A stretch of 64,000 nucleotides of DNA from Lophium mytilinum (Eukaryota): assembly GCA_010093605.1 (NCBI GenBank), contig MU004189.1, positions 565,834 to 629,833 of the forward strand, given 5' to 3'. The notes under the pieces were generated by a model. The model saw only the letters and a program-made list of their open reading frames with translations, was not told where the DNA came from and made no database searches. Shown piece after piece: positions 32,539 through 37,750 of this stretch. The first letter of the stretch is position 1. Each line of letters starts with the position of its first letter. The translations under genes and the position numbers were made by a program.

Positions 32539-34367
32539 ATGTTCTACTCCGAGACCCTGCTGTCCAGAGAGGGGCCGCTGGCCCGTGTCTGGCTGGCTGC
32601 CAACATGGAGCGTAAGCTCTCGAAGAACATGATCGTGAGCTCAAACATAACGCAGAACGTTAATACCATCGTCGGGAAGGACCAGGCGGACCAGGCGCCG
32701 ATCGCCCTGCGACTCAGTGGCCAGCTGCTGCTCGGCGTGGTGCGCATCTACAGCCGGAAGGCGCGCTATCTGTTGGAAGACTGCAATGAAGCACTCCTGA
32801 AGCTTAAGATGGTCAGTCGCGTCATTTTGCGACTTTGCGCAATTCGCATTTTCTAACAATTGGATAGGCTTTTAGGTCTAGCAATGATGTCGATATCCCC
32901 GCGAACCAGACCCACGCCGCGAATCCGAAGTCTCTGTTGCTTGTTGATCAGGTTACTGATATGGACCTCTTTTTGGCGCCGCCGGATCCCTTTATGCTTC
33001 AAACTCAATCACAGCTACGGGGTGACCTAGGGGCTGCGCAAGATCCGAACTACTTGATATACAGCCAGCAGGTTCTATCTACAAGCATTGAGGAGCCTAC
33101 GGAGGATACTGTTGAAGCTCTGGACAATGACATCGACCTTAATTTTGACGATGACCTTCTGGATGGAACGAGCATGGGAATCGAAATGGCCAGAGATGCC
33201 CCGCTTGAGCGAAACGCGTCGGAGGAGTTTGGCGATAGCGCGAAGCCACTAGACGACGATGTGCAGCTGAATTTTGGAGATGATGACCTCATTGTAGAGG
33301 ATACCTCCCTGTTCCAGGGAGCCTTGGATCACAATGACCCGGACACGCCTAATACACCTCACTTTCCTGACCTGGGTGACGTGGGTGCAGACCGCCGGCA
33401 ACGGGACACACTATCGCCGCTATCTTCCATTCGTTCCAGCGTGGAACGAGAGCTGGAACAGACGGTCAATGGGGGACAAAATACGACTCTTTTCGAACCT
33501 CAGGACGAGGAAGATGAGACCCTGCACCAACAGGCCCACAAGGCTAAGCGGCGCAAACTCTTGCATGCTGATGCGGACACCGAAATCCACTCTAACCAGA
33601 TCAGGGCGCAGCAGAACGATCGATCGAAGATCCTGAAAGCCGCTTCCTTCTTACCGCGGGATCCCATGCTCCTCGCGCTCATGACCATGCAAAAGACAGG
33701 AGGGTTTGTCTCGAGTATCTTGGGTGAAGGTCGCAACATTGGTTGGGCACCGGAACTCAGGGATCTCTTGTCACTGGAAGTCGTAAAGCGTTCGGGGGAG
33801 CTGAAGCGGAAACGAAAGACCGAGGAAGACGACGCTCCTGTGGATATCAATCTCGACGACAATGACGAGACGATTCTAGCCAACGACGACACCCTCACCG
33901 GCATTCAGGATGATATCATTGAGCTCCCCGAAGATGCGCCAGCACCACCCCCACTCGAATTGGATGAGGAGGAAGCATTATCCCCCATTCCCGATAATTT
34001 CGACGACACAACAGCTCCTTTCTTGCACCCGGCCGACAGCGGCCCTATCTCACTAGGCACGAAGAATGCCGTTCATCTACTCCGCGAGAGGTTCGGACCA
34101 GCTGCTGCGGAGAGCGAATCTGAGAGGCTGAAGACCAGCGTGCTGTTCCAAGATATGTTGCCGGAGGAGAAGACGACTAAGGCCGATGCGACACGGATGT
34201 TCTTTGAGATGTTAGTGCTGGCTACTAAGTCTGCTATCAAGGTAGAACAGCCAGTCGACCAACTTGGTGGACCTCTTCGGTTCAGAGCCCAGCGAGGGCT
34301 TTGGGGAGATTGGGCTGAGGCGGAGGCTGGCGGAGAGATTGCAGCGGCTGTCGAGGCTGCAGCGTAA
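32539..34367 (+). CDS. RAD21: Cohesin kleisin subunit Rad21/Scc1
   Basis: MFYSETLLS..GPLARVWLAA..ALRLSGQLLLGVVRIY and C-terminal ATRMFFEMLVLATK..VEQ. Intron 32812-32868. Confidence 0.95.
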
Positions 34368-35040
34368 ATAGGCTTTGAAGGATTGGACGTTGGACTGGAC
34401 GAGTTTGAAGTCTTATTATGAGGGATTGGGGGTTGGAGTTGGCGGATTCTGGCCTGATTTGGGCTATATCATATGGGAGTTGCGGTTGGAGGTTTTCCTA
34501 AGCAGGTGGGCGTTTTGATGCGGAGGGCCTGGACTTTACTTCCTATCATTGTTTTCAATACGTATTGTTGAATAAGCTCTGGACTAGTTCTCTCGTATTA
34601 GGTAGATACCAGCTCTAATGCAGTCAAGATTTGGATGCACGGTTTAAAGTTTGCTCGTAGTTCTAGCACTGCGACCTAAGTCTGCATGCACTCGAGTGTC
34701 TTTGTTCAAGGTCCCACGATGCATTTCGAGTATTTAGTATGAACGAAATTTAATTGACTAAGCATAGATGGCCGGCGAAACCATCCAAGCTACCTTACGC
34801 GTTATTATCACATAGTGCTCACATTACATACTAGGTCAAGTGAATCTGTATGGGCCATTCATAACTTTGCTGGTGAGAGGTTTCCATCACGTGGGGCCTG
34901 AATACGGTTAGCGTCTCGCTTCATTGCCAAGACATTTCTGCCCTCCCACGAAACTTTGGAATTCATCGAACCTCGCCGTCGCCAGCCATCGCCAACTTAT
35001 TCCACCTCTCCAATCGACAATCCACCCACCTCCACTCACA

Positions 35041-35990
35041 ATGGCCCCCAAGAAGAACAAGAAGACCGCTGACTCGTAAGCCTGCCTTGTCACGAAAGGT
35101 CGTTCAGCTCCATCCCAATCTAACTCGTAAAAAGGATCAACTCGCGCCTTGCGCTTGTGATGAAGTCTGGAAAGTAAGAAAAGCGCCTCTCAATTACACA
35201 AATCCCGGCCGTACAGTGGCTAACACAACTTCTTAGGGTTACTTTGGGCTACAAGTCGACACTCAAGTCGTACGTCTTAACCCCATTCCTGCTGATGCCG
35301 CAATACCCCATTCCCTACCCCTCCAGTACCAAACCATATCTACGACATACGACCCCTTCCCCCGTCTGAATACACGAAAAATCCCGCCCTCTCACTCCGC
35401 TACACGAACTCCGGAGACTCGTTATGTTCGTCCAGCACGCAGATCTCTAACACCCGTCCAGGCTTCGATCCGGAAAGGCTAAGCTTGTCATCATCGCCGG
35501 CAACAGCCCCCCACTGAGGAAGAGCGAGCTCGAATGTACGTTTTACTTCCAATTGCCCTCATGAGCGACTTTTATATCCCTTTAGTATCTCCCCGTGGCG
35601 AATCGAAATAGCTCATACAGTTACTAACTTTTTCCAGACTACAGCATGCTCTCCAAGACCTCCGTGCATCATTTCTCCGGCAACAACGTACGTCTACAAC
35701 CCTAATCCTGCCTCACGGCCTAACGACGGGGCCACTATCATGGTCGGTCCCCGAGGGCAAGCCCTGAGAAGATGTCTCTCCCCGCAGAGACTTCGGAGGG
35801 CTATGCATCATACTAACGCGCTGGATTATAAAGATCGAATTGGGCACTGCCTGCGGTAAACTCTTCCGCTGCTCGACCATGGCTATCTTGGATGCTGGTA
35901 AGTTGCAGAATATCTCTCGGTTTTAAGGATTCCGATTAGTACTAACACGGCCTAGGTGACTCCGACATCCTGAGCACGAGCACCGCATAA
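35041..35990 (+). CDS. RPL30: 60S ribosomal protein eL30; 7 exons, 109 aa (not in the ORF track)
   Basis: Exons 35041-35075, 35135-35173, 35237-35269, 35462-35535, 35638-35687, 35834-35897 and 35956-35990 (330 nt) translate to [109 protein letters not shown]. Confidence 0.97.
35761..35801 (+). promoter_or_regulatory. Kink-turn RNA hairpin in RPL30 intron 5 (putative eL30 binding site)
   Basis: GCCC-UGA-GA-AGAUGUCUCU-CCCCGC-AGAGACUUCG-GA-GGGC: 4-bp C-stem, 3-nt bulge, tandem G.A/A.G pairs, then a long NC stem. Confidence 0.75.
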
Positions 35991-36388
35991 ACGTGAGACG
36001 AGGGATGAGTGGGACCGGTTCTAGAAAACTTTTATGGCTCAATTGGAATGGTCAGCGGTGTTCGAGGCGCCGGCTTAAGTGCGGACGGCGTGATACCCGC
36101 CCTGCGGCATCAAGTTAGCGCTCATGAATCAAAAAGATCAGTAGTGCTCAGCACACAATTCACATCTTGTCGTGCTGCCTGCCACAATATCTTCCCAGGC
36201 AGTCGAAGTGAAACATTTCAGACTCAGCGCCGCAGTAACCACACTTCGGTTCGAGGACATCCAACTCGAAGCCCGTTAGGCGATCCATAGTCGCAAAGAA
36301 TACGGCCGATAGCAGCTCCCAAATGCCATCTCCAAGGGGCAAGCAGCAAAATAACCTTCCCCGAAGCACCCTTCACTACCCCCCATTC

Positions 36389-37264
36389 CTACCACGCGAC
36401 GCTGCTCATCCTCTCCCTCCGCCCCAACCTGCCCCCTTCCCTCCAATTCTCCTCCTGTGGTGGTGGCACAAACTTGACCCGCCCCTCGGCGGTATTCCCC
36501 TCACTAACCCTCCTCTCCCCCCTAACCCGCGGCACCTCCTCCCTCACCTCCTGAACCGGCCCTACACGACTCTCAAACCGTGGCGGCAAGTATAGCGGCG
36601 ACAAGCGCGCGGCGTCCACTGGCACAAATGTGGGCGACAGGCGGGTTATGTCCAGGAACTCGTGCGCTGTGAGCAGGTCGTTGTCCGAGTCGACGGTGGT
36701 GGCGGAGATGCGGCGGATCTCGGGGATTATGTAGTGCGTCGGGGGGAAGAGCGGGCGGGTCGTTGAGGAGCGGCGGCGGGTGGGGGTCGGAGAGTGGATG
36801 ATGTGCGGACTGGGTGGCGGAGAGGCGAAGAAGGGGTTTGTTGAGCTGCGTCTGGGCGGTGGGGAGTAGAGTGGAGCGTTGTGCATGGTGGCGAGGGTGC
36901 CGGGGTGGGGGAGGATGGGGCGGGGAGGGGTGGGCGCTTTGGGGGGCGTAGTTGGCGTTCGTGTCGATGTCGGGGATGACGACGTTCGGTTCGTTGAAAG
37001 GGAGGTCGAGGTGCGGATGCCGGGGAGTAGCTGCGGAGGAGTGGTGGCCCTGTCGGCTTGAGGTTGCAGGTGATATCGAGATGTCGATGATGATGCAGTT
37101 GGGCTTGCTTTGTATGGGTGCGGGCTGGTCGTCTTGTTTTTCGAGGGCGCAAAGCCGCAAAGCGCAAAACAGCCGTCGTCGTGGTTGGATGAGGTGGAAG
37201 GGGTTAGGGACGTTTTCCTTCGCCGGACGGGCAGCGCGCGCGATACGGCCGGGCCGTCTAGCAT
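36389..37264 (-). CDS. Hypothetical Pro/Ser/Thr-rich protein
   Basis: 291-codon ORF starting at ATG, mostly low complexity, with a more ordered block IPEIRRISATT..LLTAHEFL. Confidence 0.5.
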   Translation of the reverse strand: MLDGPAVSRALPVRRRKTSLTPSTSSNHDDGCFALCGFAPSKNKTTSPHPYKASPTASSSTSRYHLQPQADRATTPPQLLPGIRTSTSLSTNRTSSSPTSTRTPTTPPKAPTPPRPILPHPGTLATMHNAPLYSPPPRRSSTNPFFASPPPSPHIIHSPTPTRRRSSTTRPLFPPTHYIIPEIRRISATTVDSDNDLLTAHEFLDITRLSPTFVPVDAARLSPLYLPPRFESRVGPVQEVREEVPRVRGERRVSEGNTAEGRVKFVPPPQEENWREGGRLGRRERMSSVAW

Positions 37265-37750
37265 GAAGAGATCGGGGAGTGAAGTTCCTCCTGGGTGTGT
37301 ACGCTGGTGTCGATATTCATATAGGACTTTTAGAGATTCGCCATAGGACTTGTAGATGGCAAAGCAGATGTGTAGGGGAGGGTGCTGGATCAGGTGGCAC
37401 TTGTGATTCAGGAAAGAGCAGCTGGAGTCAAATCAGCTTGAGCAGAGTGAGACTCTTGTTGACCGCATGGTGAGTGGTAATGCTCCTTCCGGTATAACTG
37501 AGACACGACCGAAGCTTCTTTCACCATCGCGATGAGTAGATGGTAGTGTTACAGAAGAAGAGACAGCTTAAGGGTGGGTCGGCCGAACCCATAATGGAAG
37601 ATAACTATTGACTATAAGAATAAGAGACAAATCCTTGTTGCTCGTATCCACCTAGTGTCAAAGACGACGGACGTAAAAGCGTAACGAAATCTTCCTTTTC
37701 CACCAGATCAGCGATCGCGTCACCCTATTGAGATTATGCAGATGCAACAC

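Follow-up and report, generated by a model that had tools for sequence, protein, structure and literature searches.

The fifth intron of the gene for ribosomal protein eL30 in Lophium mytilinum carries, just upstream of its branch point, a hairpin that is, judged from its sequence, a perfect and deeply conserved standard kink-turn (K-turn). This hairpin, Kt-B, is preceded by a second K-turn hairpin, Kt-A. The tandem Kt-A/Kt-B module probably serves as a sensor of free eL30, such that surplus protein would block the splicing of its own message. A conserved hairpin at L30 genes and the idea of autoregulation are already in print (PMC5640933). The K-turn identity, the location in intron 5 close to the branch point, the tandem architecture and the unspliced transcript are new here. 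All positions below refer to the window, which is the whole 64-kb stretch of DNA that was analysed. The features of the gene, all on the plus strand, are as follows.

35042..35990, +, eL30 (RPL30) gene from ATG to stop (sequence read, RNA joints, ribosome-chain matches of exons 4 and 6)
35042-35075, 35135-35173, 35237-35269, 35462-35535, 35638-35687, 35834-35897 and 35956-35990, +, the seven eL30 exons
35988-35990, +, eL30 stop codon
35688..35833, +, intron 5, 146 nt, with 5' splice site GUACGU and 3' splice site AAAG (RNA joint 35687 to 35834)
35703..35705, +, in-frame UAA, six codons into a retained intron 5 (translation VRLQP, then stop)
35718..35758, +, Kt-A, the upstream K-turn hairpin, with C-stem GCCU/GGGC, bulge AAC, a G/C-rich NC stem and a 12-nt loop (pattern scan, alignment A2, model R2)
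35760..35802, +, Kt-B, K-turn hairpin with C-stem (A)GCCC/GGGC(U), bulge UGA and loop CCCCGC (sequence, alignment A1, model R1)
35811..35817, +, branch-point consensus UACUAAC with branch A at 35816 (sequence)

The structure of the gene was established from RNA contigs of four public runs, compared over 34900-36100, each run's share of the stretch being at most 0.14. Parts of the gene left uncovered were not counted as evidence, with the exception of intron 4, which is bridged by a spliced joint in run X1. All six introns are joined in these contigs and have GT..AG ends (35076-35134, 35174-35236, 35270-35461, 35536-35637, 35688-35833 and 35898-35955). The joint from 35687 to 35834 is present in runs X1, X2 and X4; X2 and X4, from two relatives, each contain one fully spliced contig, of 531 and 508 nt, respectively. 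An earlier note on this DNA had placed its hairpin in 'intron 5', and the RNA joints bear out that label, fixing 35688-35833 as the fifth of six introns in a gene of seven exons. When translated, exons 4 and 6 match eL30 chains from ribosome structures, with best E values of 1.2e-08 and 2.2e-09, respectively, and exon 6 is identical at 21 of 21 residues to PDB chain 7r81_e1, the chain for which the alignment was shown. The gene is flanked upstream by an acidic 499-codon stop-to-stop open frame (32868-34367, plus strand) and downstream by a Pro/Ser/Thr-rich open frame of 347 codons (36389-37432, minus strand).

The C-stem of Kt-B pairs G35761-C35764 with G35798-C35801, and A35760-U35802 adds one pair at its outer end. 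The bulge consists of U35765, G35766 and A35767. It is followed by the pairs G35768.A35797 and A35769.G35796 and by A35770.G35795 in the 3b.3n position. The NC stem continues with G-C, A-U, a U35773.U35792 mismatch and six Watson-Crick pairs, and is closed by the loop CCCCGC at 35780-85. On re-reading of the sequence every base and pair that the earlier note gave for 35761-35801 proved to be as stated, all the sequence features of a standard K-turn being present, and so did its 9-nt gap between the hairpin and UACUAAC. The G.A and A.G pairs of both Kt-A and Kt-B are presumably of sheared geometry.

As a single sequence, Kt-B is within chance expectation. By itself it is without significance because its fold, with an MFE of -17 kcal/mol, has a z of only -1.76 (10 of 200 shuffles fold equally well) and because a relaxed K-turn-hairpin pattern is frequent in the 64-kb window, with 40 matches on the plus and 42 on the minus strand. 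For the entire intron 5 the fold z is -1.22. Neither the gene region, searched at E up to 10, nor the 64-kb window, searched at the gathering score, matched a family of Rfam 15. At 35653-35705 of the minus strand, opposite exon 5 and the 5' splice site, there is another match to the K-turn-like pattern; it is of the long-span, chance kind.

Orthologous introns were collected by scanning JGI metagenome contigs for the back-translated beginning of exon 6 preceded by AG, the presence of a K-turn not being a criterion. The scan yielded at least 114 fungal eL30 loci, and all 114 among the matches listed encode the eL30 exon-6 peptide. An intron lies at the same codon boundary in all 114 loci listed, by construction of the anchor. 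Exon 5 was placed upstream in 106 of these 114; in the remaining eight the flank was short or a good match was lacking. With the window included, the survey comprises at least 85 distinct introns, ranging from 58 to 242 nt in length.

A strict pattern, which demands three or more base pairs in the C-stem, a bulge of 3 nt, GA...GA and an uninterrupted run of four or more NC pairs, is found in 76 of the 85 distinct introns among the matches listed. In the controls it is found in 32 of 1700 mononucleotide shuffles and in 2 of the 85 reverse complements. When one NC mismatch is allowed, at least one hairpin is found in 79 of the 85 (among the matches listed). The window's own Kt-B fails the strict pattern on account of its U.U mismatch, and passes once one NC mismatch is permitted. 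On the plus strand, the pattern scan counts 116 K-turn hairpins over the two bins of 100 nt that precede exon 6 and between 0 and 6 in each of the other bins, again among the matches listed. On the minus strand there is an excess of K-turn-like matches 200-500 nt upstream of exon 6, which was rejected as long-span chance pairing antisense to the conserved exon 4; such antisense matches recur in many loci because coding conservation carries exon 4 along. The 5' region of the gene, compared in 44-48 loci, has no recurrent K-turn and no conserved 8-mer except coding sequence.

The same restriction to one place emerges from model R1, which was built from alignment A1. R1 and the corresponding model R2 for Kt-A match their own seeds by construction, and the pattern scan provides the independent count. 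In the 64-kb window R1 has a sole match, at 35759-35803, with 40.1 bits. In loci L001-L100 (206 kb), searched at E up to 1, it has 109 matches in 96 loci, all of them on the coding strand and within about 220 nt upstream of exon 6. With 12 matches in L101-L114, the total is 108 of 114 loci among the matches listed. No hairpin of the Kt-B type was found outside eL30 intron 5 in the approximately 290 kb of fungal DNA searched.

One locus lacking an R1 match, L106, is on a contig that ends 49 nt upstream of the anchor, leaving five informative loci without the element among the matches listed. Three of these, L005, L058 and L105, have an intron of 58-73 nt at the same codon boundary, contain no K-turn in it, and have exons 4 and 5 fused. 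Their protein reads IIAANTPP in place of IIAGN, and a K-turn was found nowhere else in the two longer of these loci, L005 and L058. They probably represent another fungal lineage that is without the element. The introns of L027 and L080 are of normal length (144 and 149 nt) and contain degenerate K-turn remnants, the non-bulged strand of L027 having UA for GA. In these two the element may have been lost in a lineage-specific manner.

Alignment A1, made with MAFFT, is composed of 68 distinct hairpins, each with flanks fixed at 6 nt. All 68 have a bulge of 3 nt, with the sequence UGA in 27, UGC in 14, AGA in 13, AGC in 13 and GGA in one. The second bulge base, L2, is G in 68 of 68. Equally invariant are the G.A and A.G pairs, formed by G10, A11, G50 and A51 of the alignment (68/68), the G at 3n and the first C-stem G (-1n). 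The 3b.3n pair is A.G in 57 sequences, U.G in 10 and G.G in one; U.U occurs in 0 of 68 and G.C never. Across the survey, the internal loop takes the form (U/A)G(A/C)GA(A/U) opposite GGA in 108 of 114 loci among the matches listed. The bases of the NC stem are near-invariant as GAAG/CUUY. The C-stem has 4-6 bp and exchanges CG for UA and interchanges AU, GC, GU and UA pairs.

When the K-turn structure is imposed on A1, 92.8% of the cells are paired, a percentage that is inflated by the pairing-based filter used to choose the sequences, compared with 17-50% when the partners are slid. Changes on both sides are found in 8 of the 11 pairs, amounting to 77 cells, and none of 500 shuffles equalled the observed covariation score. 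Examples are the replacement of C-G by U-A in the C-stem (10 sequences) and of U-A by C-G in the NC stem (16 sequences). Furthermore, RNAalifold, run on A1 without a given structure, arrives at these two helices, with a 6-by-3 internal loop between them. The earlier note had proposed aligning orthologues of intron 5 and looking for covariation. That comparison comes out in its favour, since both helices covary and the GA/GA core is kept in 68 of 68. Their shared position and invariant unpaired bases argue that the Kt-B hairpins of the different loci are homologous. Because the invariant L2, 3n and -1n G exceed what the fold needs, the read-out of Kt-B by a protein would fit these data.

The hairpin beside the branch point is accompanied by another. 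The earlier note described a single K-turn in intron 5, and this description holds for Kt-B itself and fails as to number, as the pattern scan and alignment A2 both place a second, overlooked K-turn hairpin, Kt-A, at 35718-35758. It contains the pairs G35725.A35754 and A35726.G35753 and has C.C at 3b.3n. Its 3' end is one base before the extended C-stem of Kt-B. Model R2 has one match only in the window, at 35716-35760.

Alignment A2 comprises 18 sequences of the Kt-A type. In it, 94.4% of the cells are paired, a figure likewise inflated by selection through a pairing-based filter, and double changes occur in 6 of 6 NC pairs. G10, A11, G46 and A47 are invariant and the bulge is 3 nt long (both 18/18). 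The 3b.3n position holds C.C in 8 sequences, C.U in 5, U.U in 2, U.G in 2 and C.A in one. No base of the bulge is invariant, so that there is no invariant L2. The commonest type of tandem has an AAC bulge (12 of 18) and a spacing of -2 to +6 nt between its hairpins. Because the 3b.3n pair varies and L2 is not invariant, the binder of Kt-A is doubtful. Kt-A may bind an L7Ae-family protein other than eL30, or none.

Two or three non-overlapping K-turn hairpins are present in 31 of the 85 introns, or in 37 of the 85 when long NC arms are allowed (both among the matches listed). By loci, two or three K-turns occur in at least 46 of 99 among the matches listed, a count collated by hand from secondary R1 matches (13 loci) and from R2 matches with E<0.01 that are distinct from Kt-B (33 loci). 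Three hairpins are found in L017, L025 and L035; the number of hairpins thus varies by lineage. In L002, L096 and L099 the order is reversed: the GAAG-type hairpin comes first, and the other K-turn (GCUC NNC GA UGGGA...) adjoins the branch point.

The position of the element relative to the branch point is as constant as its core. In the window, UACUAAC starts 9 nt after C35801. A distance of 14 nt separates the last C-stem pair from the branch A, and another 17 nt lead from there to the 3' splice site. In the 64 introns that have a CTRAY box, among the matches listed, the distance to the branch A from the last C-stem pair of the K-turn closest to the intron's 3' end has a median of 14 nt and an interquartile range of 10-14. 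There are four outliers. Two are due to mis-assigned boxes, and the other two, L096 and L099, have a weaker K-turn between Kt-B and the branch point, which failed the pattern filter and was found by model R2. In fifteen more introns, among the matches listed, the only boxes are CTTAC- or CTCAC-like, and their distance is similar. The 'fully intronic, branch-point-proximal' element of the earlier note is therefore just that, lying inside intron 5 and keeping a short, fixed distance to the branch point across the introns compared. The MFE fold of the window sequence also shows a long-range 'zipper' helix around K-turns and branch point, which was rejected. It is no commoner than in controls, with a mean of 6.1 enclosing pairs compared with 5.7 in tail-shuffled sequences and at least five pairs in 47 compared with 44 of 79 introns.

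Retention of intron 5 breaks the reading frame in every case. It introduces an in-frame stop in 75 of the 85 introns and a frameshift in the other 10, among the matches listed.

An unspliced form of the RNA is represented in run X1, which comes from a near-identical organism: of the 23 contigs placed on the gene region, 18 agree with the window at 99% or better. The RNA label of X1 is a guess, and its spliced joints show that it contains cDNA. One unspliced contig of 107 nt extends from exon 5 across the 5' splice site (35659-35765) with 0 mismatches and a depth of 6318. The spliced joint from 35687 to 35834 has a depth of 25002, and the depth over 35761-35801 is 770. At intron 4, the spliced joint has a depth of 25000 and the intron itself is without cover. 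The contig depths give no retention ratio, and 25000 may be a ceiling. Unspliced intron-5 RNA thus exists at an appreciable level in this near-identical organism.

The autoregulatory K-turn of S. cerevisiae RPL30 has reportedly been worked out by Vilardell & Warner, Chao & Williamson (2004) and Macias (2008). According to PMC11585973, yeast L30 binds, in its own pre-mRNA, a structure made up of exon 1 and the first part of the intron; U1 can then bind, and U2 is blocked. The present element resembles this one, as far as the sources describe it, in being a K-turn in the pre-mRNA of the eL30 gene itself with G at 3n (U.G in yeast, A.G or U.G here). By analogy, the outcome would also be expected to be the same: a block to U2 recruitment and an unspliced, untranslatable RNA. 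The differences lie in position and number. The S. cerevisiae site is described as built, at the 5' splice site, from the first exon (with the 5' UTR) and the beginning of the only intron, and as persisting in the mature mRNA, on which it also works. The element described here, being wholly within intron 5 of the six, is spliced out and can act only on pre-mRNA. It starts 30 nt or more away from the 5' splice site, is 7-18 nt upstream of the branch A, and has two, sometimes three, K-turn hairpins.

Two other systems are related. In S. pombe, rpl30-1 represses the splicing of rpl30-2 (Lemieux 2011, cited in PMC4695336). There, in a third fungal lineage, an L30 protein negatively controls the splicing of an L30 pre-mRNA. 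The S. pombe control differs in acting between paralogues and through Mmi1-dependent decay, and the portion of PMC4695336 concerned with it describes no branch-point K-turn. In archaea, an L7Ae-family protein likewise represses its own gene through its own transcript, by means of a K-turn in the 5' leader of the L7Ae mRNA. This control, as presented in PMC5539422 and PMC6298567, is translational, is exerted in the 5' leader and involves no splicing.

The closest antecedent is the 'rpl30 motif' of Li & Breaker 2017 (BMC Genomics 18:785, PMC5640933), of which the paper gives 47 examples from 26 species, all Pezizomycotina among those listed. The motif is presented as a hairpin that is conserved at L30 genes and has an internal loop rich in purines; autoregulation by L30 was proposed for it. 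Its hosts in Table S1 include Aspergillus, Coccidioides, Chaetomium, Gibberella, Magnaporthe, Botryotinia, Leptosphaeria and others. Compared by the text of that paper, the element described here agrees with it (a hairpin, a purine-rich internal loop, L30 genes). It differs in location, since RNA joints place it in intron 5, whereas PMC5640933 places the motif mostly in 5' UTRs. The words 'kink' and 'K-turn' have 0 occurrences in the text of that paper, which mentions no intron 5, branch point or tandem arrangement. Because no other conserved element was found in the 5' regions of 44-48 loci, the 'rpl30 motif', matched by its description in the text, is very probably the intron-5 K-turn element. 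The 5'-UTR placement may be explained by the gene annotation of the source data. The earlier note knew of no description in filamentous ascomycetes; this claim of novelty does not stand, since both the hairpin and the idea of autoregulation were in Li & Breaker 2017. When the literature was searched for K-turns in the L30 introns of filamentous fungi, that paper was the sole result, and no other paper with the phrase 'rpl30 motif', no follow-up in the literature searched and no Rfam family were found.

The yeast L32 of the old nomenclature is presumably the present L30, in which case a precedent cited under that name is the orthologous circuit. PMC5640933 does cite yeast 'L32', the autoregulation of which it treats as a precedent set by another protein.

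The reading of the module as an eL30 sensor draws on several lines of evidence. The host gene encodes eL30, which is itself a K-turn binder of the L7Ae family and is described as binding the K-turn of helix 58 (H58) in PMC3706390. The motif is confined, in the DNA searched, to the eL30 intron, is fixed near the branch A and covaries, and unspliced RNA is present. Retention of intron 5 always breaks the reading frame. In addition, the 3b.3n pairs of Kt-B, A.G and U.G, are like those of known L30e sites and unlike those of U4 or box C/D K-turns: in PMC5061560, U.G is given for the yeast L30e pre-mRNA site and A.G for Kt-58. By this analogy, Kt-B would be suited to the same protein. The K-turns of U4, according to the same source, have mostly G.C and rarely A.G at 3b.3n.

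From these observations we infer eL30 to be the binder, a block to U2 recruitment to be its effect and decay to be the fate of the retained form. In such a circuit, eL30 made beyond the use of ribosome assembly would bind one or both K-turns, that is Kt-B, the predicted target, and perhaps Kt-A. The bound, kinked hairpins would occupy the 10-40 nt just upstream of the branch point, which is the docking place of U2 snRNP. With docking prevented, the branch point would remain unengaged and intron 5 would be retained. Translation of the retained form would stop after six codons and give no eL30, and the transcript would probably be degraded. A more far-reaching proposal is that the abutting K-turns, two and sometimes three in number and with 0-5 nt between their C helices, constitute a cooperative switch which binds several eL30 molecules and replaces the anchoring site of U2, an independently evolved and relocated form of the yeast L30 circuit. 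This we regard as possible and rather doubtful.

Other explanations start from the same hairpins. The K-turns might be bound by Snu13 (15.5K) or by another L7Ae-family protein (eL8, Nhp2 or eS12), and suppress excision of the host intron in the manner of mammalian intronic K-loop RNAs. Snu13 binds many K-turns, Kt-A is without the invariant L2 and 3n bases of Kt-B, and a 2026 preprint (10.64898/2026.08.03.742641) reports thousands of human intronic K-loop RNAs that are bound by 15.5K and suppress excision of their host introns. A general K-turn binder, however, would leave unexplained why the motif was seen only in the eL30 gene in the DNA searched. Moreover, the features of box C/D RNAs (C and D boxes, U.U at 3b.3n, a guide region) are absent from Kt-B in the 68 sequences: neither a C box (RUGAUGA) nor a D box (CUGA) is present, all 68 have YGGA on the non-bulged strand, and U.U and G.C are never found at 3b.3n. 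There is also no Rfam snoRNA match. Binding by one of these proteins is for these reasons an unlikely explanation. Many fungal ribosomal-protein introns host snoRNAs, and the intron could accordingly release a stable small RNA, snoRNA-like or another K-turn RNP, acting in trans. The loops, however, are 2-24 nt long and unconserved in sequence, which leaves no guide, and no Rfam family matches. In X1, the depth at the K-turn is 770 compared with 6318 in the 5' part of the intron, which is a weak point against such an RNA, as small structured RNAs are poorly captured. A released small RNA is accordingly very improbable.

The hairpins could also act without any protein, as a structural element that sets a constitutive splicing efficiency or presents the branch point, with no feedback. 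K-turns with A.G at 3b.3n fold in Mg2+ alone according to PMC5061560, and structured introns of yeast ribosomal-protein genes can enhance splicing, as stated in PMC12311795. Against this, the invariant L2 and the near-invariant GAAG/CUUY exceed the need of folding, no conserved zipper helix encloses the site (6.1 compared with 5.7 pairs), and the gene product is itself a K-turn binder. A purely structural role is, on this evidence, distinctly improbable, and sensing of eL30 remains the preferred reading.

Feedback of eL30 on splicing is a textbook case, the mechanism of which is known only from budding yeast, where the K-turn lies over the 5' splice site. The present analysis gives a precise identity and location, a K-turn in intron 5, to a motif that was catalogued in 2017 as a 5'-UTR hairpin. 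If the sensor reading is true, the same protein-RNA pair is found beside the branch point of an internal intron across filamentous ascomycetes. It would then become testable whether occupancy upstream of a branch point suffices to stop U2 recruitment, and how the feedback circuits of ribosomal proteins move between splice signals in evolution. Should the switch with several eL30 molecules also prove true, the same protein-RNA pair would have been coupled anew to splice signals that differ from one fungal lineage to another.
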